Assembly: GCF_017315985.1 (NCBI RefSeq)
Contig: NZ_JAFLVR010000012.1
Coordinates: 95,972-119,971, forward strand
Reading direction: 5' to 3'
From: Candidatus Enterococcus murrayae
GTDB taxonomy: Bacteria; Bacillota; Bacilli; Lactobacillales; Enterococcaceae
Length of the DNA stretch: 24,000 bases
Shown here: positions 5,337-18,023 of the stretch, piece by piece
Numbering within the stretch: position 1 is the stretch's first letter
Layout: each line of letters begins with the position of its first letter
The notes under the pieces: model-generated
Told to the model about the DNA's origin: nothing
What the model saw: only the letters and a program-made list of their open reading frames with translations
Databases searched by the model: none
Translations under genes and position numbers: made by a program

Positions 5337-7031
5337 GTGGTGTTCCAATTGTTAGATAATCCAATGCAATATGTGTTCAATTATGAGTTTAGAGATGTTA
5401 CGGTTAAGGACTTGGTCAAGTCTAAAAAACTTGAAGCAAGTGAGGTATACGCAGATGAATTAAGCTTGGATAATATAATCAAAAGTGCAACTGTTATGGA
5501 TGTAGAAGATATTGTTCCTTGGTTGCATGAAGGAGATGTTGTTTTTATTAGTAGATTCATGAAAAATTGCTTTACTAATATTTTTATTCAGCGAATTCTA
5601 CTAAAAAAAGTATCGTGTGTTATAACACAAAAGAAGTTCAAAAAATATGTGACAGATGAGCAGTTTGAGTTATTGAAGAAGAACAATCTACCGATTATTT
5701 TTGTCTCAGATTCTTCATCTTGGAGTGATTTGATTGTTGCGATACAGAACTTGATTATTCAAAACCAGACCCATTATTTAGTTGAGAATCAAGAGTTTCA
5801 AAATTCCATTATAAATTATTTATCGAGTAGTAGTTCTCAAAATAGTTTATGTGATATTGTGCACAGTTTAACTGGAATAACTATCGCAATCACGAATCGT
5901 AATCTTCAGCTAGTGGATTACTCAAAAGATAATGATTGGGAATCGGACTTAGCTGGATTAACAAAAAAAGAGTTAGTCGAAAAAAAAGCAATCGGAGAAA
6001 ATTTTAATGAATTGCCAATATTCGGGTTTCACTATTCAAGAGAAAGCCAAGCAGAAACACCTGATTATTTTGTTATTCCTGATCGTTTATCAAGATATGG
6101 TGCATGTTTTTATATCATCGTTAAGCACAAAGAAGAGACTTTATATTTATCTCCTCAGATTATAGGTCGAATAGAAACAGTGGAGTCAATTTACTCATTG
6201 AAGCATAGTATTATCTCAGATTTGAGAAAGTCCAATTATTATTTTAAGACGGTAGTTTTTGAAGACTTATTAGAAATGGAAGAGAGAGATGAAAAGAAAC
6301 GCCATCATATCAGTTTGAATTTGAAACAAGACTTGAAAGAATATTATCACTTAATAATAATAAAAAATGCCAAAGACAATACGATTTGCAAAAATGTTGA
6401 TTTATTAACAGGCTTTATTGATTATATTAAGCACAAGGGGTTTGCCGATGATGAGCTTCTACTGTTTGTTTATAAAGAGCATTGGATCATTTTGATTGAT
6501 GATTCCATCCATTCTATTAAGAAGACCGGTGATACAATTTATGAGTTACTGGTTACATATTTTGAGAATGATGGATTTGTTATAGGAATCAGCAATCTAC
6601 ACCATTATTGGGAGTTAAAACAGGCGTTTAATGAAGCCTCATTTGCTGTTGATTATTTGGTCCATAATAGTAATTCCCAATCAACATTGCTATACAATGA
6701 GTTAGGAATAATTAAGCTTTTTACAGACCAGAATAGTCAAATCAATAGTGTTTATACTAATGAAATGTATCGAACTTTTTTGAAGCCTGTTTTAGAGTAT
6801 GATAAGGAGCAGCAAACGGCATTATATGAAACCTTGGTCACATTTTTTTCCAATGACTTGTCTTTCGTAAAGACGAGTGCAACTCTGTTTATCCATGTGA
6901 ATACCTTAAGGGCTCGAATAAAAACAATCGAAAAAATTTTGAATGTAGATACAAATCGAATTGATAGCCTAATGAATATACGGTTGGCAGTTCTATTGTA
7001 TCAGTTTGGGTATTTTGAAAAAATAGAATAG
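5337..7031 (+). CDS. PucR/CdaR-family transcriptional regulator
   Basis: The C-terminus carries the PucR-type HTH (SATLFIHVNTLRARIKTIEKILNVD), and the length of about 560 aa is typical of PucR-like regulators. The start is ambiguous: GTG 5337, TTG 5349 (6 nt after AAGGTGGTG) or ATG 5364. Visibly more AT-rich than its neighbours. Confidence 0.8.
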   Translation: MVFQLLDNPMQYVFNYEFRDVTVKDLVKSKKLEASEVYADELSLDNIIKSATVMDVEDIVPWLHEGDVVFISRFMKNCFTNIFIQRILLKKVSCVITQKKFKKYVTDEQFELLKKNNLPIIFVSDSSSWSDLIVAIQNLIIQNQTHYLVENQEFQNSIINYLSSSSSQNSLCDIVHSLTGITIAITNRNLQLVDYSKDNDWESDLAGLTKKELVEKKAIGENFNELPIFGFHYSRESQAETPDYFVIPDRLSRYGACFYIIVKHKEETLYLSPQIIGRIETVESIYSLKHSIISDLRKSNYYFKTVVFEDLLEMEERDEKKRHHISLNLKQDLKEYYHLIIIKNAKDNTICKNVDLLTGFIDYIKHKGFADDELLLFVYKEHWIILIDDSIHSIKKTGDTIYELLVTYFENDGFVIGISNLHHYWELKQAFNEASFAVDYLVHNSNSQSTLLYNELGIIKLFTDQNSQINSVYTNEMYRTFLKPVLEYDKEQQTALYETLVTFFSNDLSFVKTSATLFIHVNTLRARIKTIEKILNVDTNRIDSLMNIRLAVLLYQFGYFEKIE

Positions 7032-7041
7032 TCATTGAAAC

Positions 7042-7072
7042 AGGCCTTACATAAATTGTAAGGTCTTTTTTG
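7042..7072 (+). terminator. rho-independent terminator after the regulator gene
   Basis: Stem aggccttaca (7042-7051) pairs with tgtaaggtct (7057-7066, one G-U pair), followed by tttttg. Confidence 0.75.
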
Positions 7073-7311
7073 ATTTTTACTAGGCAAGTCTCCTTTGTTT
7101 GTTCATACAATTGTAAGCCTTTTCTTTTGTGTATTTAGCTAATTCATTTTTAGAGTAGATTCTTCTAAACTTAAATTGTTCATAATTATTGTTTTGTAGA
7201 ACATTTGATAAAACAGCTAGGAGTGCGCAACCAAAATTAGCTTCGAAAGGGAGTATGTATAGAAGTACTTGAAAATAAGTAAGAACATTATAGAAGGGAG
7301 TGTCTAGTAGT

Positions 7312-8835
7312 ATGGTTGACGATACAACAAAAAGTAAAAAGAAAATGAAGGGACTCAATTCCTTTGTTGTCATGTTTGTTGTAATGGTCTTTATAACGCT
7401 TTTAACATGGGTAATCCCAGGCGGGGAATACCAATTGGACAAAGCAGGCAACGCAATAGCAGGAACTTATTCTGCTTTGCCTTCAAATAAACAAGGGCTG
7501 TGGGATATTATTGTAGCCCCGATTATTGGAATGGTCGGTAATAGTGCAGTTAGTGGAGCAGTCGCCATTTCATTATACGTTATGCTTTTCGGAAGTTTTC
7601 TAGAAATGATGGATGAAACAGGAGTTATTGGGTTAGTTTTGAAGTCTGTTTCAAAGCGATTTGAAAAGCATCCTTATGTGCTTATTACCGTCTTAACATT
7701 CATTATGGCTTTTTTAGGAACAACCCAAGGTTCCTATGAAGAAGGATATGTTTACGTCTCATTGTTCCTTCCAATTTTTTTAGCACTTGGAATGGACTCT
7801 ATTACTGTATTAATGATTACCGTTTTTGGGACGCAAATTGGGTGTGCGTCTTCTGTGATAAACCCTTTCTCAACCGGGATAGCGTCAGATATTGCGGGAA
7901 TCTCATTTGGTAGTGGGATAATGGAAAGACTGTTGATTTTTTTCGTATTAACCGCTTTTGTTTCATTTATAATTTGCCTTTATGCGAAAAGTGTCAAAGC
8001 TCATCCAGAGCGTTCTATCCAATTTTTTAGGCGCGATGACGATTTACTTGAGTTTGGTGGAGGATCAGAAAATTCTGACAATGATCAGTCAATGAGTGGA
8101 AAGGAAAAGTCCTTAGTAGCGGTATTCATTAGCACCTTTGTCATCATGGTTTTAGCGTTATTTCCATGGACATCTATAAATGAGAATTTCACACTTTTTC
8201 AAGATATCGCAGAATGGATTAATACCACACCTATTATTAACACGATCATCGGCAGTGATGTCGTTGCATTTGGAGATTGGTACTTTGTAGAATTATGCGG
8301 CTTAATGCTCATTATGAGTATTATTTCAGGGAAGGTCGCTGGATTTTCAATTGATAAAATAATCAAGATTATTATGAAAGGTGCTGGAGCATTAATTTCA
8401 ACAGCATTGATGGTTCCTATGGCAAGAGGCATACAAGTATTAATGACGCAAGGAAATATTACGGCAACAATTTTGAATGCTACAGAAAAAAGCATCGGCT
8501 CATTACCATTAATCATTTTCGTCATTTTTGCCTTTGTCATTTATCTAGTGTTTGCTTGTTTTCTTCCTAGTTCAACTGGACTTGCTGGAGCGACTATAGC
8601 AGTCATGGTTCCGTTAGGGAGTTTTGTAGGCGTTGAGCCTTTCATTATGATCATTATTTATAATTTTGCTTTAGGGATAGCGAAGATGTTTACGCCAACC
8701 TCGATTATTGTTATGACCTGTACGCAATATGCAAAGATAGACTATTTGTCTTGGGTTAGAGGTGTTTGGAAACAATTAGCCATGATTTTTGCAGTTTGTT
8801 TAGCGATTGTTTTACTTCTAGTCATCGTTACCTAA
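7312..8835 (+). CDS. YfcC/ArcD-family (DcuC-like) permease, putative substrate/product antiporter of the deiminase operon
   Basis: Polytopic membrane protein of about 507 aa. It has a basic N-terminus (KSKKKMKG), then a TM helix, then WVIPGGEY, which matches what I recall of YfcC-type carriers. I prefer ATG 7312 (AAGGGAG 11 nt upstream) over GTG 7300. Confidence 0.75.
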   Translation: MVDDTTKSKKKMKGLNSFVVMFVVMVFITLLTWVIPGGEYQLDKAGNAIAGTYSALPSNKQGLWDIIVAPIIGMVGNSAVSGAVAISLYVMLFGSFLEMMDETGVIGLVLKSVSKRFEKHPYVLITVLTFIMAFLGTTQGSYEEGYVYVSLFLPIFLALGMDSITVLMITVFGTQIGCASSVINPFSTGIASDIAGISFGSGIMERLLIFFVLTAFVSFIICLYAKSVKAHPERSIQFFRRDDDLLEFGGGSENSDNDQSMSGKEKSLVAVFISTFVIMVLALFPWTSINENFTLFQDIAEWINTTPIINTIIGSDVVAFGDWYFVELCGLMLIMSIISGKVAGFSIDKIIKIIMKGAGALISTALMVPMARGIQVLMTQGNITATILNATEKSIGSLPLIIFVIFAFVIYLVFACFLPSSTGLAGATIAVMVPLGSFVGVEPFIMIIIYNFALGIAKMFTPTSIIVMTCTQYAKIDYLSWVRGVWKQLAMIFAVCLAIVLLLVIVT

Positions 8836-8912
8836 GTAATTAACTAAAGGAATATATCAATTTAAGTCAATGAACATTCATATTAAAAAATGAGTTAAAC
8901 GGAGGAGAAAAA

Positions 8913-10025
8913 ATGACAGTATCAATTAAAGGAAGACACTTTTTAGCTTTGGAGGATTTTACTCCTGAGGAGATTCGCTATTTGCTTGATCTAGCATTAC
9001 AATTGAAAGAAGAGAAACATGCAGGAAAAAATCAACAGGAATTTATCGGAAAAAACTTATTGATGCTTTTTGAAATGAATTCTACTCGAACACGATGTGC
9101 TTTCGAGACCTCTGGCTGTGATCTTGGAATGGGGACGACATTTCTGTCTAATTCACATTTTGGGGAAACAGAGACGATTAAAGATTCGATGAGAGTATTT
9201 AGCAGCATGTATGATACCATCGGTTATCGTGGAGCTAAACATAGTACTTTATTGGAAATGACAAAGCACAGTACGATTCCAATTATTAATGGGTATACCG
9301 ATCACCAGCATCCTACACAAATGTTGGCCGATGCGATGACTTTAGATGAAATATGGGGACGTGAAGGATACAAAGGAAAGACATTATGCTTTATTGGTAG
9401 AGGTGGAGCCGTTAATTCCTTTTCTTACGGTGTGATTTGCGCGATGCTAGGGATGAATTTCACTTATATCACTTCTTATATGGATTTAGAGGAAGCAATG
9501 GACGGCTTAACTCAGGCGCAACGTGACCTTTTCCATCAATTTGTACCAGAAGGAGAAGTATCACCTAACTGGAACACTAAAATGGATCCTAAAAAGCGCA
9601 AAATTGTGGAAGATTTATTTGCTAAGTATAGCCCAGATTGCAAATTTATTGAAACCGATAACATTGATGCAATTAAAGGTGTCGACATTATTACGACGGA
9701 AAATTGGGGGTTCTTTACCGATCCAGTTGAAACATGGTTACCTGGAATTATTCGTTTCCGACCTTATCAAGTTAATCGTGAGCTTATGGAGCGCACAGAA
9801 AATCCGAACTGTATTGCTCTTCACATGCTTCCAGCAACTCATAATATGGATCATGCCTCTGGTCAAAGGTTGCTTACTGCGGTAGATGACAAAGATTTAC
9901 AAGAGTTTCTGAAGAAAGGAATGGAAGTAACGGACGAGGTCTTTGAAGAAAATGCGGCGCATATTTTTAGAGAGGCTGAAAATAGATTGCATACTATTAA
10001 AGCAGTTATTCGTGCTGTTCAATAA
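8913..10025 (+). CDS. carbamoyltransferase of the OTC/ATC superfamily, with catabolic-OTC-like backbone but non-ornithine specificity motifs
   Basis: SD GGAGGAG. Carbamoyl-phosphate motifs are intact: STRTR (aa 57-61, nt 9081-9095), YRG Arg106 and HPTQ (aa 133-136, nt 9309-9320). The C-terminal EVTDEVFE...EAENRLHTIKAV is OTC-like. However, the OTC DxWxSMG loop reads TENWGFF (nt 9696-9716) and HCLP reads HMLP (nt 9822-9833). An extra segment of roughly 25-30 aa sits around aa 190-235. Confidence 0.85.
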   Translation: MTVSIKGRHFLALEDFTPEEIRYLLDLALQLKEEKHAGKNQQEFIGKNLLMLFEMNSTRTRCAFETSGCDLGMGTTFLSNSHFGETETIKDSMRVFSSMYDTIGYRGAKHSTLLEMTKHSTIPIINGYTDHQHPTQMLADAMTLDEIWGREGYKGKTLCFIGRGGAVNSFSYGVICAMLGMNFTYITSYMDLEEAMDGLTQAQRDLFHQFVPEGEVSPNWNTKMDPKKRKIVEDLFAKYSPDCKFIETDNIDAIKGVDIITTENWGFFTDPVETWLPGIIRFRPYQVNRELMERTENPNCIALHMLPATHNMDHASGQRLLTAVDDKDLQEFLKKGMEVTDEVFEENAAHIFREAENRLHTIKAVIRAVQ

Positions 10026-10052
10026 TTTTTTATCCAAAACAAGGAGGAAGTT

Positions 10053-11324
10053 ATGAATAATTTAGAGTATAAAGAACTAGATTATAAGGATTTTAGATTT
10101 CCGGGTGAGTTTGAACCCCAGGAAGCAGTAATCCTAGGCTGGCCAGAAATGGCTGAATGTGTTAAAGGGTACAGTCTTCATCAGGCTTTTGCACAATTAA
10201 TTAAAATTATTGTTGAACAAGCTAATGATGTAACCGTTTATGTAAACTGTCCAAAAGAAGAGATGGTAACTAGTTGTAAAAAAGCTCTTGCTGAAGAAAA
10301 AGTAGACATCGAAAAAGTAAAAATTACTACGTATCCTGATGGCAGTAATTGGACAAGAGATTATGGACCAGACATGATGGTGGACGATAGAGGAAATAAG
10401 ATTTTAGCTAATCCACGCTTCAATATGTATGGGCAAAGTACAATTGACAGCACTACTTCACAACTTTGTGCAAGATTTGCTCCTCATTTAGCATTAGAAA
10501 TGGGGTATAGAGATTTTGTTAATTCAACATTGATTACTGAAGGCGGCGACAAAGAGTTCAATGGTAATGGTGTCCTGATGACACTAAGAGATACGGAGGT
10601 AACTAAGCGCAATCCGCATATGTCTACAGAAGAAGTGGAAAAAGAGTTAAAACGATTGTTCAATGTCAAGAAAGTTATATGGTTTGAAAAAGGTGTTTTT
10701 GATGATGAACTAACCACTTCAGGTGTTTTGGACTATGTAGATGGTGAGCCCGTTTACCGCTCTTCTTCTGCGAATGGGCATATTGACGAGTTCTGCCGAT
10801 TTGTTGATACGAATACGATTATATTAGCCGAAGTTACAGATGAGGAAGCAGCAACAATGAACTCACATAGGATCACGAAAGAACGTCTAGACGCGGCGTA
10901 TGAAATCCTAAATAATTCTACAGATGCTGCTGGGCAGCCATTCAAAATTTTGAGAATGCCCATCCCTGAGCCATTTTATGTTCATACAAAGAAAGGTGAT
11001 TGGATTAATGACACTTGGACTTGTCGCTACAGCGAAGGCGGCGACTATTTAGATGATGGAACACCGATGCCTCACGGAGATATGGTTATGCAGCCGGCCT
11101 TAAGCTATTGCAACTTTTTAATCTTAAACAATATTGTAATTGCTCAATCCTATTGGGAGGAAGGTCGACCAGAAAGCATTAAGGAACTGGATAAACAAGC
11201 ATTAGCGGTTTTACAAGAGGCCTTTCCTGATCGGAAAATCGTACCATTCGTTAGTACAGCATTAAACATTCGCGGTGGCGGCGTTCATTGTGCAACAAAG
11301 AACATACCAATCTCAGCCAAATAA
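10053..11324 (+). CDS. agmatine-deiminase-family (PAD_porph-type) guanidino-group hydrolase, unusually long (423 aa)
   Basis: SD AAGGAGGAAG. N-terminal FRFPGEFEPQEAVILGWPE, then WTRDYGP, TEGGD, NGHIDEF (His243/Asp245, nt 10779-10787), SYCNFLILNNIVI, FPDRKIV, and C-terminal RGGGVHCATK with the nucleophile Cys413 (nt 11289-11291). Confidence 0.85.
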   Translation: MNNLEYKELDYKDFRFPGEFEPQEAVILGWPEMAECVKGYSLHQAFAQLIKIIVEQANDVTVYVNCPKEEMVTSCKKALAEEKVDIEKVKITTYPDGSNWTRDYGPDMMVDDRGNKILANPRFNMYGQSTIDSTTSQLCARFAPHLALEMGYRDFVNSTLITEGGDKEFNGNGVLMTLRDTEVTKRNPHMSTEEVEKELKRLFNVKKVIWFEKGVFDDELTTSGVLDYVDGEPVYRSSSANGHIDEFCRFVDTNTIILAEVTDEEAATMNSHRITKERLDAAYEILNNSTDAAGQPFKILRMPIPEPFYVHTKKGDWINDTWTCRYSEGGDYLDDGTPMPHGDMVMQPALSYCNFLILNNIVIAQSYWEEGRPESIKELDKQALAVLQEAFPDRKIVPFVSTALNIRGGGVHCATKNIPISAK

Positions 11325-11336
11325 TTGATAAAAGCT

Positions 11337-11372
11337 AATATCTCAGCACAGAATCGACTGTGTTGAGATATT
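11337..11372 (+). promoter_or_regulatory. intercistronic stem-loop between the deiminase and carbamate kinase genes, with no U-tract
   Basis: aatatctcagcaca (11337-11350) pairs with tgtgttgagatatt (11359-11372). The stem is 14 bp with one G-U pair and the loop is 8 nt. It is followed by catgattAAGGAG, the SD of the next gene. Confidence 0.5.
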
Positions 11373-11393
11373 CATGATTAAGGAGTCCTATAT

Positions 11394-12341
11394 ATGACGA
11401 AACCTAAAATTGTAATTGCGTTAGGCGGGAATGCCCTGCAATCAAAAGAGAGTGAGGCAACTGCAGAAGCACAACTAGAAATTGTACGAGAAACTTGTGA
11501 GCATATAGCTGAAATTAGCGGCCGCGGATATGAAATGACTATTGTACACGGGAATGGACCTCAAGTTGGACGAATCATCTTAGCCAGTGAGACGGCCAAA
11601 GATGAAGTACCTCCGATGCCTTTTGATGTATGTAGTGCAATGTCACAAGGCTATATTGGGTATCATCTTCAACAAGCGCTGAAATATGCACTTAATAAAC
11701 GGAATCGGAATGTTCCAGTAGTAACAGTCGCAACACAAATGATTGTAGAGCCAAATGATCCAGCGTTTCAAACACCGAATAAACCAATTGGACCATTTTA
11801 TTCTAAAGAGGAAGCGACATTACTTGAAAAAGAAAAAGGGTATGATTTGAAGGAAGATGCTGGACGTGGGTGGCGTCGTGTCGTTGCTTCACCTTTGCCA
11901 AGAAAAATTGTTGAGATTGATGCAGTAAAAATGCTGTGGAACAATGCAATTGTGATTACCTGTGGCGGCGGCGGAATCCCAGTAATTGAAAAGTCAGATG
12001 GACTATTAGAAGGAGTCCCAGCTGTGATTGATAAAGATTACGCAGCTGAACTTTTAGCTGAACAAGTTGAGGCGGATTTTTTACTCATTCTTACAGAAGT
12101 AGAAAAAGTGGCAATTAATTTTAATAAGCCTAATCAAAAAAACTTAAGCAGCATGAGTCTCACAGAAGCAACCAAATATGTGGAAGAAGGCCATTTTGCA
12201 GCAGGTAGTATGTTGCCAAAAGTTCAAGCAGCAATGAAATTTGTTAGAAGTAATCCGTCAAAAAAGGCAATTATTACTTCGTTGGACAAAGTAATAGAAG
12301 CTTTAGATGGTAAAACTGGAACACATATTACATTTGCTTAG
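11394..12341 (+). CDS. arcC: carbamate kinase
   Basis: SD AAGGAG. N-terminal IVIALGGNAL, then HGNGPQVG, CGGGGIPV and a C-terminal amino-acid-kinase fold. Its 315 aa matches carbamate kinases. Confidence 0.9.
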   Translation: MTKPKIVIALGGNALQSKESEATAEAQLEIVRETCEHIAEISGRGYEMTIVHGNGPQVGRIILASETAKDEVPPMPFDVCSAMSQGYIGYHLQQALKYALNKRNRNVPVVTVATQMIVEPNDPAFQTPNKPIGPFYSKEEATLLEKEKGYDLKEDAGRGWRRVVASPLPRKIVEIDAVKMLWNNAIVITCGGGGIPVIEKSDGLLEGVPAVIDKDYAAELLAEQVEADFLLILTEVEKVAINFNKPNQKNLSSMSLTEATKYVEEGHFAAGSMLPKVQAAMKFVRSNPSKKAIITSLDKVIEALDGKTGTHITFA

Positions 12342-12482: not shown

Positions 12483-13472
12483 ATAACACGACTTTTATGT
12501 TTTGAAGCGAATGAAGAACGAAAAGTGTTTGTTAATGAATGGGTGAAAAAAACTGGTGTTCAAGTAGATACTGTTCCTTACAAACTCACTTTGGAAACTG
12601 TAGATATGGTTCGAGGATATGATGGTGTTTCCATATCAGAAGCTGGGAAATTCGATTCTTCCATTTTTCCTCAACTAAGTAAATATGGAATTAAACACTT
12701 AGCGCAGAGAACATCTGGTTTTGAAGGGTTTGACTTGGAAGCTGCCAAGCGCAGTGGAATTATTATTACAAACGTTTCTAGCTACTCACCAGAATCTATC
12801 GCGGAGTTCACGCTTATGCTCGCACTCCAGCTAGTAAGAAGATCAAAGGATTTGGATCAACGTGTTAAAAGGTTTGATTTCAATTGGAGTCCAGAGGTAA
12901 GAGGGAAGGTAATGAAGGAACAAACAGTTGCTATTATAGGCGTTGGACGAATTGGTTATGAAGTGGCAAAATTGTTCAAGGCTTTTGGTTCGACCATCAA
13001 CGGTTATGCTACGCACCGCAATAAAAATGCGAATGATCTATTTGAATACAAAGATTCAATTGAAGAAGCAATCCATAACGCAGATATAATAACTCTTCAT
13101 ATACCTGGAAAGGAAAAGAACCATCATTTATTTGATAAAAAAATGTTCAATAAGTTTAAACCAGGGGCTTGCTTGATTAATACTTCTCGTGGTTCATTAG
13201 TTAATACATCGGATCTAATTGAAGCATTAGATAGTGGGAGAGTTTCAGCAGCAGCTTTAGATGTCTATGAAAATGAAGCGGAATACATTCCTGGTAAACA
13301 TGAAGAAATTTCAGATACTGTTTTCAAAGAATTACTAAACCATCCGAAAGTTACTTTTTATCCCCACTGCGCCTACTATACTGATGTTTCCATGCGAAAT
13401 ATGGTCCATTATGCGTTGGATTCGATTATAGAGGTTATTGAGACTGGCGATAGCTTTTCAAGAGTCAACTAG
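12483..13472 (+). CDS. D-isomer-specific 2-hydroxyacid dehydrogenase (D-lactate-dehydrogenase-like), with ATA at the expected initiation codon
   Basis: NAD motif IIGVGRIGYEVA and catalytic triad context NTSRGSLV / LDVYENE / YPHCAYYT. The track starts at GTG 12525, but the frame is open from 12480 and encodes the family-typical beta-1 strand (x)TRLLCFEANEERK. SD AGGTGA (12470-12475) lies 7 nt before ATA 12483. No ATG, GTG or TTG is available there. Confidence 0.7.
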   Translation: MTRLLCFEANEERKVFVNEWVKKTGVQVDTVPYKLTLETVDMVRGYDGVSISEAGKFDSSIFPQLSKYGIKHLAQRTSGFEGFDLEAAKRSGIIITNVSSYSPESIAEFTLMLALQLVRRSKDLDQRVKRFDFNWSPEVRGKVMKEQTVAIIGVGRIGYEVAKLFKAFGSTINGYATHRNKNANDLFEYKDSIEEAIHNADIITLHIPGKEKNHHLFDKKMFNKFKPGACLINTSRGSLVNTSDLIEALDSGRVSAAALDVYENEAEYIPGKHEEISDTVFKELLNHPKVTFYPHCAYYTDVSMRNMVHYALDSIIEVIETGDSFSRVN

Positions 13473-13576
13473 TCTATGATTTTAATAAAATTGACAAAAT
13501 TAGTAAAGTAGTTGAATAGACAAGGCAGTAAAAAACATTAATAGAAATCTGTGACCCATTAAAACTATTAGATTTG

Positions 13577-13623
13577 AAACAGAGCTGATTTAGAAAGGAA
13601 ATCTTCTAAATCAGCTCTGTTTT
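13577..13623. terminator. bidirectional rho-independent terminator shared by the dehydrogenase (+) and epimerase (-) genes
   Basis: A perfect 19-bp stem: aaacagagctgatttagaa (13577-13595) pairs with ttctaaatcagctctgttt (13604-13622), with an 8-nt loop. A/T runs at both ends. The right arm overlaps the last codons of the minus-strand gene. Confidence 0.8.
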
Positions 13624-14393: not shown

Positions 14394-16448
14394 ATGAAAG
14401 CGAATCAGCGTTTATTAGAACTGATCTATTTTTTCGAAACGACTCCCAAAACGTCGATCAAAGATATTGAGTCCCAGTTAAATATTCCAGAAAGTGCCGT
14501 GCGTTATGAAATTGATAATCTGAACTATTATCTTAGAATGATGGAACTACCAGAAATTCAAAAGGAAAATAATGGTCAGCTTATTTCAACTGTAGTGAAT
14601 TTTGAACCTGTAAATCAATTATTAGAAGAAATCTATAGGCCTGATTCGAAAAAAAGACGAGATTATTTAACGTTCAAGTTAGTACTCGCAGGAAAAATCA
14701 ATATTCAAAAGGAATCGATATTTCTAGATGTAACTAGAAATACAGTCAAATCAGATTTAAGGAGTGTCATTCAAGTTCTCGAACGTGAACAAATATACGT
14801 AAAAGAACGGAAAATCATTGCTGGAAACGAATTGGAGATGCGCCGCTTTATTTTGAACCGTTATCGAGAAAATTATTTGGTTCTCTTCTCTGAAAAGGAG
14901 AAACGACTGATCTCTAATCCCATTGAACGAAGAATTCTTGAGGATCTTGAAGATATTGATTTTGGAAAAATGGCGGCTCAAATAAAAGAGTTAGCAAAAA
15001 ACTATCCATTCACTAACTTTTATGAAACATTTTTGCTAAATGTACTAGTGACCATTCATCGTAATCATTATGGTCATTCAATTCAAGAAGTTCAAAACGT
15101 CTCTCAAATTCAAGCACTTGGGGAATATATAGCTATCAGGAAACTCATGCAGAGTATCGGAGGGAGGTATAACTTTTCTGAAAGAGAGATCGCCTATTTG
15201 ACGGAAATTTTAGTCAGTTATAGTGAAGAGTCAATCAATCAGAGTTACCAGAAGAATCTTTTGTCTTTCAAATTATTTGTTTCCAAACTAGTGACTAGTG
15301 TTGGTAAGGAGCTTGGGATGGAATTAACAGAAGATCCTATTCTAATGGAAGGGCTTTATCAACACGTTAAAAGCACGATTTATCGAAAGAACAACTCCTA
15401 TGAGATGGATAGTGAGATTTATCAACAAGCTATTGGGAACTATCAAAGCTTATTTTCGCTTTTAGAAAAAAATATTGAGTTTTATCAGAATGAACTTAAT
15501 GTTCACTTTACAAAAGAAGACATTGCTTTGTTTGTGATTCATTTCTTAGGAGGGATAAGAAGATTTCAAGAAACACATCAGCCTAATTTAAGAGTTTTAC
15601 TCGTATGTCATTCAGGCTATGGAACATCAGTCCTTTTAAAAAATCTGATCGAAAAAAATTATAACGTTGAGGTGGTTGGAACTTCTTCCATCTATCAAAT
15701 CAATGATTACCTTTCTCAAAACATTGATTTGATCGTGAGTACTTTATATTTTTCCTTTGAAATTAAAAAAACAGTAGAAGTTCCCATTCTGTTTATTTCG
15801 CCGTTCTTAACCTTTAATGATGATCAGAAGTTAAAAGAATTTGGAATTACTAGAAAACGGGAAAAAAATAAAATTTCTGTAAATAAATTATTGAAAGTGC
15901 TAGAGCGTCATACCACTATTTCTAATTCCTTAAGTTTGAAAAAGGACTTATTAGCTGCTTTTCCAGAGAATCTACAAGAGGAGCGAAAAGAATCTAGTCT
16001 GTTTGATGGCCTCAAAGATGAAGACATTACTTTCGTTCAAGAAATAGAGGATTGGCAAACGGGATTGTCCATGTGCAGCCAATCGCTGGAACAAAACCAA
16101 GTTGTGAAAAAGAGTTATTTGGAGGGAATATCACAATCCGTTAATTTATATGGTGCCCATTTTGTTATTCGGAATCAAATTGCGATTCCTCACGGCAGTG
16201 AGAAAAGTGGAGTTTTAAAATCAGGTATCCATATTCTTTATGTGAAAAATCCAGTTATTTTTCCAAATGAATTACCAGTAAGACTGATATTCTTTATTGC
16301 TTCGAAAGAAAAAGAGCTATTAATAAATACAGTGATGACTATCAATGCTATTTCTCATGATAAAAAGTTTTATCAAAAATTAGACCACGCAATTGAAAAA
16401 GCAGAATCCTTATCTGATTTCTTCAAAGAGTGGCTCGATGGAGTGTGA
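14394..16448 (+). CDS. PRD-domain transcriptional activator (MtlR/LicR type: HTH, two PRDs, EIIB-Gat-like domain, EIIA-Mtl/Fru-like domain)
   Basis: SD AAAGGAGG. N-terminal winged-helix region, central PRD-like helical region with His-containing segments (VTIHRNHYG, LFVIHFLGG), EIIB-like LRVLLVCHSGYGTSVLL, and a C-terminal EIIA-like domain with IAIPHGS. Confidence 0.85.
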   Translation: MKANQRLLELIYFFETTPKTSIKDIESQLNIPESAVRYEIDNLNYYLRMMELPEIQKENNGQLISTVVNFEPVNQLLEEIYRPDSKKRRDYLTFKLVLAGKINIQKESIFLDVTRNTVKSDLRSVIQVLEREQIYVKERKIIAGNELEMRRFILNRYRENYLVLFSEKEKRLISNPIERRILEDLEDIDFGKMAAQIKELAKNYPFTNFYETFLLNVLVTIHRNHYGHSIQEVQNVSQIQALGEYIAIRKLMQSIGGRYNFSEREIAYLTEILVSYSEESINQSYQKNLLSFKLFVSKLVTSVGKELGMELTEDPILMEGLYQHVKSTIYRKNNSYEMDSEIYQQAIGNYQSLFSLLEKNIEFYQNELNVHFTKEDIALFVIHFLGGIRRFQETHQPNLRVLLVCHSGYGTSVLLKNLIEKNYNVEVVGTSSIYQINDYLSQNIDLIVSTLYFSFEIKKTVEVPILFISPFLTFNDDQKLKEFGITRKREKNKISVNKLLKVLERHTTISNSLSLKKDLLAAFPENLQEERKESSLFDGLKDEDITFVQEIEDWQTGLSMCSQSLEQNQVVKKSYLEGISQSVNLYGAHFVIRNQIAIPHGSEKSGVLKSGIHILYVKNPVIFPNELPVRLIFFIASKEKELLINTVMTINAISHDKKFYQKLDHAIEKAESLSDFFKEWLDGV

Positions 16449-16452
16449 TAAG

Positions 16453-16923
16453 ATGCTTAACCAAGATTTTGTTTATTTTGACGAAGAATACAAATCAGCC
16501 CGGGATTTACTCTCACAAATTGCCAAGGATTTGTATAAAAAAGGCTACGTTAAAGAAACGTATGAACAGTCTATTATTTCTAGAGAAGAGAAGTACCCTA
16601 CAGGTTTGAAGTTAGCAGGCTTGAATATCGCAATCTGTCATACAGAACCTAAAGATGCTGTTAAAAATACCTTGTTTTTAGTAAAACCAGCTCAGCCCGT
16701 ATTTTTTAAGAATGCTGAGACATTAGAAATACTGCCGGTGGATTTGGTCATTGGTTTGGTATTCAGTGATGGGAAAATCCATTTAAAGAATCTTTCTTTT
16801 TTAGCTCAGTTATTTACCAATCAACAATTCATTCAGGAAATTAAGCAGGCGGCTTCAAAGAGAGAACTGATAACGACCTTTTCTCATTTTGCGCAGATAG
16901 GAGGAGAGCAATGGAGCGATTGA
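16453..16923 (+). CDS. PTS EIIA component (PTS_EIIA_2, ascorbate/galactitol/SgcA type)
   Basis: I prefer ATG 16453 (MLNQDFVYF...), 4 nt after the regulator stop, over the overlapping track start at 16393. EEKYPTGL and a NIAICHTE phospho-His context. 156 aa. Confidence 0.8.
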   Translation: MLNQDFVYFDEEYKSARDLLSQIAKDLYKKGYVKETYEQSIISREEKYPTGLKLAGLNIAICHTEPKDAVKNTLFLVKPAQPVFFKNAETLEILPVDLVIGLVFSDGKIHLKNLSFLAQLFTNQQFIQEIKQAASKRELITTFSHFAQIGGEQWSD

Positions 16924-18023
16924 AGCAGTTGATTATGGAATTATCCGATTTACCAGGAAATGTTGGTTACGAAGATCAAGTCATTCAGTATTTGCTAGAC
17001 AGTTTAGGCGAGGAAAAGCAGGTTTCTCTCGATATATTAGGAAACTTGACCGTTCACTTAACGCCAAAAAACATAGGAAAACAAAGAGTTATGCTTTTTG
17101 GACATATGGATGAGGTTGGCATGATGGTCAATCATATCGACAAAAATGGATTTATCTACTGTGAGAAACTGGGTTCATTGAATCCTACTTGCCTTGCAGG
17201 TTTAAAACTCGAGTTACATGGGGAGAAAGGATCAGTCAATGGGGTCGTGGGAGTAAAGTCTCATCATTTGGCAAAACAAAAAGAGGGAAAGATTCCAGAG
17301 AATGCTCGGGACTACTATTTGGATGTTGGGGCTTTAAGTAGGGACGAAGTATTAGATGCAGGGATTGACATAGGTTCTCCGGTCACTTTCAAGCCACAAT
17401 TCTTGCAATTATATGGAAACTGCATCGCAAACAAGGCGATGGATGACCGTGCGTTGTTAGGAATTTTACTCTATTTGACTGAGAATTTAGCCATTGAGAA
17501 ATTGGACGTAGACTTATATCTAGTATTTAGCGTTCAAGAGGAATTCAACACTCGCGGGATTATGCCGACTGTTAGAGAGATTCATCCAGATATTGTTATT
17601 GGTTTAGATGTTACTCCGGCAACTGACACACCGGATTTATCCGGATTATCTGAGATTAAGTTAGGAAAAGGTCCCGCATTAACTTTCATGAATCATCATA
17701 GCCGCGGCACATTAGCAGGCATTGTTCCGAATAAACGATTTTTGACCTATTTAGAAACTATGGGGGAAAGAGCTGGTATACCGATTCAGAGAGAAGTAGC
17801 CACAGGGATTTTGACTGAGACAGCTTATATCGCCATTGAAAATAATCAAACTGTTGTAGCGAATATTTCATTGCCTACTCGATATACACATTCGCCTGTT
17901 GAAGTTATCCATTTGGAAGATGCACTAGGAATTTATCAATTGTTGGCAGAATTTCTACTTTCTTTAGATGGCACTCAAAAGTTTGGAAAAAATAGTGATT
18001 TTGAAAGGAATGATAATAAATGA
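16911..18023 (+). CDS. M42-family metallopeptidase-like protein (SgcX/FrvX type)
   Basis: SD AGGAGGAG. It overlaps the EIIA gene by 13 nt. All M42 metal ligands are present in context: FGHMDEVG, AMDDRAL, SVQEEFNTRG, IGLDVTPA and RYTHSPVE. Confidence 0.85.
   Translation: MERLKQLIMELSDLPGNVGYEDQVIQYLLDSLGEEKQVSLDILGNLTVHLTPKNIGKQRVMLFGHMDEVGMMVNHIDKNGFIYCEKLGSLNPTCLAGLKLELHGEKGSVNGVVGVKSHHLAKQKEGKIPENARDYYLDVGALSRDEVLDAGIDIGSPVTFKPQFLQLYGNCIANKAMDDRALLGILLYLTENLAIEKLDVDLYLVFSVQEEFNTRGIMPTVREIHPDIVIGLDVTPATDTPDLSGLSEIKLGKGPALTFMNHHSRGTLAGIVPNKRFLTYLETMGERAGIPIQREVATGILTETAYIAIENNQTVVANISLPTRYTHSPVEVIHLEDALGIYQLLAEFLLSLDGTQKFGKNSDFERNDNK

Follow-up and report, generated by a model that had tools for sequence, protein, structure and literature searches.

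A PucR-linked operon of Candidatus Enterococcus murrayae probably encodes a deiminase-type energy pathway for a guanidino compound other than agmatine or arginine

In Enterococcus faecalis, the aguR-aguBDAC operon encodes putrescine transcarbamylase (PTC), an APC antiporter, agmatine deiminase (AgDI) and carbamate kinase (CK). We report here on a locus with the same three-reaction logic and the same folds, organized as an operon with its own regulator and transporter, in a stretch of 24,000 nucleotides from Candidatus Enterococcus murrayae (contig NZ_JAFLVR010000012.1, positions 95,972 to 119,971 of the forward strand). This whole stretch is hereafter called the window, and coordinates refer to it unless another sequence is named. 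Six genes on its plus strand encode a PucR regulator, a permease of the DcuC/YfcC family, a transcarbamylase, a deiminase, a CK and a protein resembling D-lactate dehydrogenase (D-LDH). The locus has in common with the E. faecalis agmatine pathway a pentein of the PAD_porph family with its catalytic Cys, His and Asp, a transcarbamylase of the ornithine transcarbamylase (OTC) fold, and a CK. However, the window deiminase is about 60 residues longer than E. faecalis AgDI, lacks the residues Glu214 and Asp91 (E. faecalis numbering) and carries an arginine, Arg236. The window transcarbamylase lies outside the PTC clade and lacks the 230-loop signature, the HCLP motif and helix 13 of the E. faecalis enzyme. 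The accessory genes differ as well: the transporter is of the DcuC/YfcC rather than the APC type, and the regulator is a PucR rather than a LuxR protein.

The arginine deiminase pathway of Streptococcus pneumoniae, arcABC-arcE, is the second close relative. The window permease belongs to the family of ArcE, the CK is the equivalog of arcC, and the transcarbamylase is nearest to OTCs of the ArcB/ArgI type. Unlike the pneumococcal system, however, the window locus has no ArcA-type (PF02274) deiminase, and its transcarbamylase has none of the Lys, SMG and HCLP determinants for ornithine. YgeW (YTCase) and ureidoglycine transcarbamylase (UGTCase) provide precedents for enzymes of similarly unusual specificity, encoded beside a CK and feeding carbamoyl phosphate to ATP synthesis (PMC4581275, PMC6022934, PMC4016543). 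Yet YgeW is a knotted, long-loop enzyme that is very distant from the window transcarbamylase, UGTCase is ATCase-like, and neither is paired with a pentein deiminase.

We propose that the window locus is a PucR-controlled operon which probably serves a third, uncharacterised deiminase-type pathway of substrate-level phosphorylation, whose substrate would be neither agmatine nor arginine. The guanidino compound would be imported by the ArcE-like permease, probably against the amine product. The pentein deiminase, with Cys413 as nucleophile assisted by His243, Asp245 and Asp103, would convert it to a ureido compound and NH3; the OTC-derived transcarbamylase would then phosphorolyse the ureido compound to an amine and carbamoyl phosphate, from which carbamate kinase would produce ATP. 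Gene content supports this four-step scheme well; the direction of flux and the exchange transport are inferred. The first-pass annotation of this DNA had already read the locus as an operon for a guanidino compound other than arginine, and that interpretation is favoured by the model scores, trees, residue changes and gene neighbourhoods described below.

The physical layout is that of an operon. The open reading frames (ORFs) are present, all on the plus strand, where the first-pass annotation had placed them, and direct reading of the sequence confirmed the short spacers it had given (77 nucleotides between permease and transcarbamylase, 27 between transcarbamylase and deiminase, and 69 between deiminase and CK), as well as its strong Shine-Dalgarno (SD) sequences: GGAGGAG for the transcarbamylase, AAGGAGG for the deiminase and AAGGAG for the CK. 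A terminator scan called no terminator within the four-gene block from permease to CK, and none between the CK and D-LDH-like genes, the next one lying at 13576-13623. We take co-transcription of the genes as likely.

The deiminase gene (10053..11324, plus strand) encodes a 423-residue pentein (PAD_porph, PF04371, E-value 1.4e-64). It had been described as AguA-like, and this holds for the fold, though not for the scores, which are below the AguA cutoffs. The AlphaFold2 model of the protein (pLDDT 89.6, pTM 0.90) has agmatine deiminases as its top Foldseek matches (2JER, 6NIB and 1VKP; TM 0.81-0.86, 24-26% identity). On the AguA models, the protein reaches 166.1 bits against a cutoff of 381.8 (TIGR03380) and 169.2 against 483 (NF010070), whereas a canonical AguA from another of the loci that we gathered (L031) obtains 594 bits on the same AguA model. 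No ArcA-type PF02274 protein was found among the operon proteins or in the two immediate flanking genes scanned.

We aligned 141 sequences with MAFFT: 14 members of the family including the window protein, 122 representatives from an exhaustive search, and five canonical agmatine deiminases, L031 AguA among them. The other canonical references were taken from Protein Data Bank (PDB) alignments with their numbering checked (E. faecalis 2JER, Streptococcus mutans 2EWO, Arabidopsis 3H7C and Medicago 6NIB). In a neighbor-joining tree, the five canonical enzymes form an exclusive clade in 200 of 200 bootstraps, with the window deiminase outside, in a separate and compact clade of its own family (199/200). 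This family is part of a large, uncharacterised radiation of PAD_porph proteins of 400-450 residues, represented by 186 clusters at E<1e-30 in the exhaustive representative search. The window protein belongs to a distinct family of 411-431 residues, with the predicted reaction guanidino-X + H2O -> ureido-X + NH3.

The residues around the active site separate catalysis from recognition. Catalytic residues D103, H243, D245 and C413 are kept in all 141 aligned sequences. In the structure of the Medicago enzyme MtAIH, Asp220 and a backbone carbonyl bind the terminal amine of agmatine, and Asp89 contacts it by way of a water molecule (PMC6447857). Alignment maps these two acidic residues to Glu214 and Asp91 of E. 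faecalis AgDI. The W-2 position is Asp in all five canonical enzymes, and an Asp or Glu directly precedes (T/A)NGH in four of the five, the fifth, L031 AguA, having the sequence ETNEH, which MAFFT gapped. In the window family, both carboxylate positions are non-acidic: one is an invariant Ser239, and the other, position 98, is Ser, Met, Leu or Thr (Ser98 in the window). Ser239 is part of a strictly conserved motif, R236-S-x-S239-A-N-G-H, located within a family-specific insertion of about 16 residues, in which Arg236 is likewise invariant.

The second enzyme tells a similar story. The transcarbamylase gene (8913..10025, plus strand) encodes a protein of 370 residues with OTCace_N and OTCace domains, which scores below cutoff on all 17 NCBIfam models that it matches, including the OTC models TIGR00658 (248.9 against 280.85 bits) and NF003286 (266 against 515) and the PTC model TIGR04384 (188.6 against 500). 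Its nearest characterised relatives are OTCs of the ArcB/ArgI type, with 210 bits to PDB OTCs. We computed a bootstrap tree with Escherichia coli ArgI and PyrB, Pseudomonas aeruginosa ArcB, PDB 9Y83, Pyrococcus furiosus OTC, Enterococcus mundtii ArgF, E. faecalis PTC and YgeW as references. The family is monophyletic in 500 of 500 bootstraps and sister to the ArgI/ArcB-type OTCs in 384, and it groups with E. faecalis PTC in none (0/500). YgeW is far away, at 41-43 bits and a distance of 2.09. Phylogeny had been put forward as a check on the first-pass reading, and neither enzyme of the window falls within the characterised AguA or PTC clades (200/200 exclusion for the former, 0/500 grouping for the latter).

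The carbamoyl-phosphate motifs of the transcarbamylase superfamily (SxRT, HPxQ and HxLP) are present, in the form STRTR, HPTQ and HMLP. The positions that discriminate OTCs from PTCs, as listed in the PTC structure paper (PMC3282769), fit neither enzyme. Two residues before STRT, where OTCs have Lys and PTCs have Gln, the family has Met (FEMNSTRTR). The specificity loop, or 230-loop, reads XSMG in OTCs and (Y/W)(G/W)(V/L/I)X in PTCs, whereas it is ENWGFFT here, with an invariant W-GFFT. The third carbamoyl-phosphate motif, HCLP in both known classes, reads HMLP in this family (16 of 17 members, the other having HQLP); HMLP does not occur in the published table of transcarbamylase motifs. The C-terminal helix is present in PTCs, absent in OTCs, and absent here: the window protein lacks the extension of about 20 residues (helix 13) of PTC and ends six residues past HTIKAVI. 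In addition, the GDxxNN segment of OTCs is replaced by GRGGA(V), and the family has a specific insertion of about 32 residues together with a shortened 80s loop (SHFG). The family motifs, namely M-x-STRTR, HPTQ, IGRGGA, TENWGFFT and HMLP, are conserved from Enterococcus to the Eggerthellaceae, as are the insert and the short 80s loop. A backbone like that of catabolic OTCs, devoid of the ornithine motifs, was what the first-pass annotation had described, and both halves of this description stand: the sister position to ArgI/ArcB on the one hand, and the missing Lys, SMG and HCLP on the other. The substrate pocket is predicted to be hydrophobic and aromatic (ENWGFF, Met and Phe), with a new Arg in GRGG. 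We presume that this new and conserved family is catabolic, catalysing ureido-X + Pi -> X-NH2 + carbamoyl phosphate.

The third enzyme is of a known type. The product of the CK gene (11394..12341, plus strand) exceeds the TIGR00746 arcC cutoff of 358.25 with 413 bits, which confirms its earlier assignment as a carbamate kinase (carbamoyl phosphate + ADP -> ATP + CO2 + NH3); by this score it qualifies as a bona fide arcC equivalog. A transcarbamylase gene adjoining a CK gene is a recognised mark of catabolic function (PMC6022934).

How far is this gene set conserved? Both proteins have homologues in populated families. Exact matching of protein sequences and a single scan of species-representative genomes yielded 29 non-redundant loci, whose genes we mapped with BLAST; in addition, all ORFs no further than 8 kb from the deiminase were clustered in an unbiased manner. 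A transcarbamylase of the family adjoins the deiminase, or is parted from it only by a transporter gene, in 21 of the 29 loci. A CK gene is present within 8 kb in 13, while several other loci end at contig edges. The regulators and transporters vary: a TetR regulator is found in 12 loci, a PucR regulator alongside the enzyme pair in 9 and a MerR/GyrI-like regulator in 5; Gate-domain transporters occur in 15, NhaC-type transporters in 12 and DcuC-type permeases in 11. No further family was recurrent among the ORFs within 8 kb. The pair-bearing loci span at least three classes and include Enterococcus, Facklamia, Lachnospiraceae, Oscillospiraceae, Peptoniphilus-like contigs and Eggerthellaceae. 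The conservation of neighbourhoods, also put forward earlier as a check, thus came out in favour of the pair, which is kept with PucR or TetR and with DcuC, NhaC or Gate proteins. That the enzyme pair is conserved across phyla while its regulators and transporters are swapped argues for a distinct, dedicated pathway.

Several architectures can be recognized. With a PucR regulator, the order is (Gate)-DcuC-(dehydrogenase)-transcarbamylase-deiminase-(DcuC)-CK, in Enterococcus, Facklamia, Enterocloster, Schaedlerella, a metagenome-assembled genome (MAG) of Oscillospiraceae and a Peptoniphilus-like contig. The order TetR-transcarbamylase-NhaC-deiminase-(Gate)-(CK) is found in Allofournierella, Pseudoflavonifractor, Oribacterium, Adlercreutzia, Enorma and Eggerthella, and a TetR gene accompanies transcarbamylase-deiminase-DcuC-CK in Slackia and Rubneribacter. 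Stand-alone deiminases of the Bacillus cereus group, Clostridium and Peptostreptococcaceae are accompanied by a MerR/GyrI-like regulator, whereas others, in Romboutsia, a Thermotogae MAG and Anaerovorax, have no MerR gene nearby.

The distribution also bears the trace of transfer. The window deiminase is 82-83% identical to the copies of Enterococcus sp. PF1-24, Enterocloster, Schaedlerella and Lachnospiraceae (L009, L010, L011 and L014), an identity across classes far above vertical expectation, which argues for recent horizontal transfer. The block syntenic with PF1-24 extends exactly from PucR through D-LDH, with different flanks, and the flanks in the window (a glycosyltransferase, a GNAT protein, an esterase and a PTS operon) are unrelated to the operon. 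A blastn search of PLSDB found the enzyme pair on no plasmid; the matches were to single genes, arcC and YfcC.

What could the substrate be? We suggest, tentatively and from residue comparisons, that its distal end is non-cationic, possibly a carboxylate or a 2-hydroxy or 2-oxo acid rather than an amine. Three lines of evidence point in this direction. In the deiminase, both carboxylates that hold the amine are gone, and the invariant Arg236 has appeared in the same substrate-distal loop; in the transcarbamylase, the ornithine set (Lys, SMG and Cys) is missing, and the pocket is hydrophobic and aromatic, with a new Arg; and D-2-hydroxyacid dehydrogenases have repeatedly joined the cluster. As candidate substrates we put forward 4-guanidinobutyrate, 5-guanidinovalerate, argininic acid, 2-oxoarginine and guanidinoacetate.

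Eight of the 29 loci encode a 2-hydroxyacid dehydrogenase no more than 8 kb from the deiminase; it is embedded in the cluster in five of them, downstream of it in two and at 3 kb in one. The embedded enzymes are orthologous D-2-hydroxyacid dehydrogenases (CtBP/PGDH-like) found in three lineages, Lachnospiraceae, Oscillospiraceae and Peptoniphilus, with 60% identity between those of Peptoniphilus and Enterocloster. In both Enterococcus-type loci, a D-LDH-type enzyme is encoded 3' of the operon; in the window this gene (12483..13472, plus strand) passes the NF006374 cutoff of 356 with 373 bits and may be an accessory member of the block. Its product aligns, from the ATA codon at 12483, with residue 1 of the 331-residue PF1-24 orthologue. 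This ATA is seven bases after an AGGTGA SD sequence, and the first canonical in-frame start, a GTG at 12525, would cost about 14 conserved N-terminal residues. The gene therefore has either a rare ATA start or a decaying start codon. A reasonable possibility, though one short of probable, is that the operon supports a hitherto undescribed, energy-yielding fermentation of a guanidino acid or a guanidino hydroxy acid (for instance 4-guanidinobutyrate or argininic acid/2-oxoarginine), spread horizontally among gut Enterococcaceae, Clostridia and Eggerthellaceae and involving a dedicated D-2-hydroxyacid dehydrogenase in some lineages.

A number of observations weigh against our reading. The D-LDH-type gene of the window is only 30% identical to the embedded dehydrogenases, besides its non-canonical ATA start, and the TetR-type clusters have no dehydrogenase at all. 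The deiminase is alone in 8 of 29 loci and hence has no local transcarbamylase to feed there. The proposed substrate class depends on a few residues mapped by sequence alignment, among which Arg236 could be structural. Finally, the Lys that pairs with the carboxylate of ornithine is gone, so that a substrate carboxylate would need another site in the transcarbamylase, for which the Arg of GRGG is a guess. A link to purine or allantoin metabolism, through oxamate or ureidoglycolate chemistry, was also considered on account of the PucR regulator and the dehydrogenase; it was rejected, as penteins act on guanidino groups and no amidohydrolase is recurrent nearby.

Could the operon simply be a divergent agmatine deiminase pathway, leading from agmatine through N-carbamoylputrescine to putrescine, with its transporter and regulator swapped and its binding site remodelled? 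The gene set does mirror that of the AgDI pathway, the fold and catalytic residues of the deiminase are those of agmatine deiminases, under which name databases list it, and the transcarbamylase resembles PTC in its hydrophobic pocket and in the absence of the OTC Lys. However, both amine-binding carboxylates are gone from the deiminase, the transcarbamylase lacks all three structural PTC signatures (230-loop, HCLP and C-terminal helix), and both enzymes are outside the characterised clades and far from the respective cutoffs (166 against 382 bits for the deiminase, 189 against 500 for the transcarbamylase). Moreover, the family coexists with the canonical system in one genome: locus L031 contains, besides a member of the deiminase family, both a canonical AguA and a PTC-like gene, and the two systems are therefore paralogous, not alternatives. 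We thus regard agmatine as an unlikely substrate.

A basic alpha-amino acid related to arginine, such as homoarginine, canavanine, D-arginine or norarginine, converted to the matching ornithine analogue, would suit the sister position of the transcarbamylase to ArgI/ArcB-type OTCs, as well as a permease from the family of ArcE, an exchanger of basic amino acids and citrulline. It is made improbable by the replacement of every element that binds the alpha-carboxylate and alpha-amino group of ornithine (the Lys two before STRT, the Asn of GDxxNN and the SMG loop), and by the lack of an acidic residue, at the deiminase positions used for the agmatine amine, that could pair with an alpha-amino group.

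Neutral, N-substituted or peptide-bound guanidino substrates have to be weighed too, for instance plant N-acyl-agmatines, N-acetylarginine, or dipeptides and diketopiperazines of the Arg-Pro type. The loss of the amine ligands from the deiminase and the aromatic pocket of the transcarbamylase (ENWGFF, Met and Phe) are what such a substrate would lead one to expect; PPAD, another PAD_porph member, acts on C-terminal Arg of peptides, a prolidase-like gene of the M24 family adjoins the cluster in Eggerthella, and a strain-variable cluster of Eggerthella lenta, discussed below, is associated with a compound whose mass would suit cyclo(Cit-Pro), among others. But this M24 gene is not recurrent (fewer than three loci within 8 kb), the E. 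lenta cluster could not be shown to belong to the family, and neither the invariant Arg236 nor the association with dehydrogenases would be explained. We give this class of substrates little chance. Lastly, an anabolic or detoxifying role, with a ureido metabolite as the product of the transcarbamylase or a toxic guanidine inactivated by the deiminase, is very improbable for the window operon: transcarbamylase reactions are reversible, and stand-alone deiminases with MerR/GyrI-like regulators do exist in the Bacillus cereus group, Clostridium and Peptostreptococcaceae, but here the transcarbamylase is linked to a CK and a permease, a recognised catabolic signature (PMC6022934), and no biosynthetic genes are recurrent in the neighbourhood.

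If the fermentation of a guanidino acid or guanidino hydroxy acid is real, it would define a new deiminase with an EC number of its own and bring the firmly assignable catabolic transcarbamylases to four. Firmly established catabolic transcarbamylases act on ornithine, putrescine and ureidoglycine only, and whether other ureido compounds serve as sources of carbamoyl phosphate and ATP has been posed as a question (PMC6022934). The locus offers a concrete and widely distributed candidate, with sequence signatures, a partner deiminase, transporters and regulators. The logic of deiminase, transcarbamylase and CK is already known; the enzyme families and the specificity seen here are not previously characterised, and they are widespread in gut anaerobes. 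Our literature search found no description of this deiminase/transcarbamylase family. Prevalent taxa of the human gut carry the family (Enterocloster, Schaedlerella, Angelakisella, Allofournierella, Eggerthella, Adlercreutzia and Peptoniphilus), and guanidino compounds include uraemic toxins and drug-related molecules, so that the identity of the substrate could matter for host-microbe chemistry.

Database labels obscure the family. The first-pass annotation had predicted that automated pipelines would call the two enzymes agmatine deiminase and OTC. This is true of the deiminase, which the National Center for Biotechnology Information (NCBI) names "agmatine deiminase (family protein)", and of the transcarbamylase in UniRef and in the Joint Genome Institute (JGI) database, where it appears as OTC, but not of the transcarbamylase at NCBI, which is a "hypothetical protein". 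NCBI gives that same name to the family transcarbamylases of Enterocloster, Schaedlerella, Angelakisella, Peptoniphilus and Eggerthella. With its members mis-annotated or left without annotation, the pathway is therefore absent from metabolic models or misassigned in them.

A published data set on E. lenta may be related. Noecker et al. (2023) observed that agmatine did not induce one "agmatine deiminase" operon of this species, the second such operon, for which they considered a related compound as a possible substrate (PMC10234575). Their Table S6 also lists a strain-variable cluster annotated arcB, argF and aguA, found in 16 strains, which is associated with an unidentified compound about 100-fold higher (PMC10234575). 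The features of this compound are m/z 255.144, 238.117, 277.127, 293.100 and 300.202, at two retention times, and were not followed up by the authors (PMC10234575). From the m/z values 255.144, 277.127 and 293.100, we calculated M at about 254.137, a mass compatible with C11H18N4O3, the formula of cyclo(Cit-Pro), among others, and likewise of His-Val. A transcarbamylase whose closest relative is ArcB, as is the case in this family, would plausibly be labelled arcB by Prokka, and Eggerthella guodeyinii carries the family. The membership of the E. lenta cluster in this family could not be established, and we treat it as a lead, not as evidence. The locus-tag notation for E. lenta is ambiguous, ELEN_RS11010 being listed as induced (PMC10234575).

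The remaining genes of the operon concern transport and control. The permease gene (7312..8835, plus strand) encodes a DcuC/YfcC-family protein (PF03606 DcuC, E-value 4.5e-77; ArcE-like, TC 2.A.118). The type earlier assigned to it, YfcC/ArcD, finds a match at the level of the family only: on the YfcC equivalog model, which has a cutoff of 500, the protein obtains 171.5 bits. Its start is most likely the ATG at 7312, not the mechanical ORF start at 7300, since the former aligns with the start of the PF1-24 orthologue and stands behind the SD sequence GAAGGGAG. By analogy with ArcE, which was characterised as an arginine/ornithine exchanger that also carries the ureido intermediate citrulline (PMC5300872), we presume the permease to be a substrate/product exchanger. 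The regulator gene (5337..7031, plus strand) encodes 564 residues with PF07905 PucR (E-value 6e-11) and PF13556 HTH_30 (E-value 7e-15) matches, which bear out its classification as PucR-type; it is a probable activator of the operon.

The regulator gene does have its own terminator, as had been noted: an intrinsic-terminator-like hairpin with a T-run directly after it (7042..7075, plus strand; called at 7042-7066), formed by a 10-bp stem with four GC pairs and followed by TTTTTTGATTT. The end of the whole block is marked by a strong terminator hairpin (13576..13623, plus strand), with a 20-bp stem and a T-run. In a two-sequence alignment of the regulator-permease spacers of the window and PF1-24, TGCGCAACCA (7224..7233, plus strand) is the sole conserved block besides the SD sequence, and might be a promoter or operator element. 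An antisense ORF of 123 residues (7080-7451, minus strand) overlaps this spacer and the 5' end of the permease gene; no protein family supports this ORF, which is probably spurious. In the deiminase-CK spacer, RNA folding predicts a stable hairpin without U-tract (11337..11372, plus strand), with a perfect 15-bp stem, a free energy of -21.2 kcal/mol and a z-score of -3.9, none of 200 shuffled sequences being as stable. This element may act in mRNA stability or processing, or as a (partial) attenuator setting the stoichiometry of CK. We also scanned the window and six loci with Rfam at gathering thresholds for a riboswitch that could provide a clue to the ligand, and obtained an unrelated T-box only.

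In Enterococcus sp. PF1-24 (L001/L012, 3777-6810), the PucR orthologue is cut in two by a transposase of the IS3 family, and its CK and D-LDH genes are separated by further insertion sequence and integrase fragments, so the operon may be deregulated or silent in this strain. Among the stand-alone deiminases, those of the B. cereus group (L003 and L028) and of Clostridium and Peptostreptococcaceae (L022 and L029) have 54-59% identity and keep R236 and S239. Their MerR/GyrI-like regulator is divergent, and neither transcarbamylase nor CK is nearby; in Bacillus mycoides, an AmiS/UreI channel follows the stand-alone deiminase. Such enzymes may carry out the same deimination for nitrogen scavenging or detoxification.

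In Eggerthella guodeyinii (L036, 7020-8162), a prolidase-like Creatinase_N/Peptidase_M24 gene lies directly upstream of the TetR-type cluster, and in Adlercreutzia (L006) a gene of the same kind (16226-17374) is found 5 kb from the cluster. We rejected this creatinase-like M24 peptidase as a core component, as it recurs in fewer than three loci within 8 kb.

A related but distinct module is carried by the conjugative plasmid pLDW-8 of E. mundtii (L034, NZ_CP018062.1, 3322-9260), which has, in this order, a PucR regulator, an argF-type OTC, an unannotated gap of 850 bp, a YfcC permease with 64% DNA identity to that of the window, and a pentein hydrolase. In contrast to the window operon, its transcarbamylase is an ordinary argF-type enzyme of 312 residues with SMG and HCLP, its pentein is a 284-residue protein of the DDAH/ADI type, and there is no adjacent CK. 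The plasmid module may convert methylarginine, or another guanidino compound, to citrulline and then to ornithine and carbamoyl phosphate. Its existence suggests that deiminase modules linked to PucR and YfcC are built from more than one set of enzymes.

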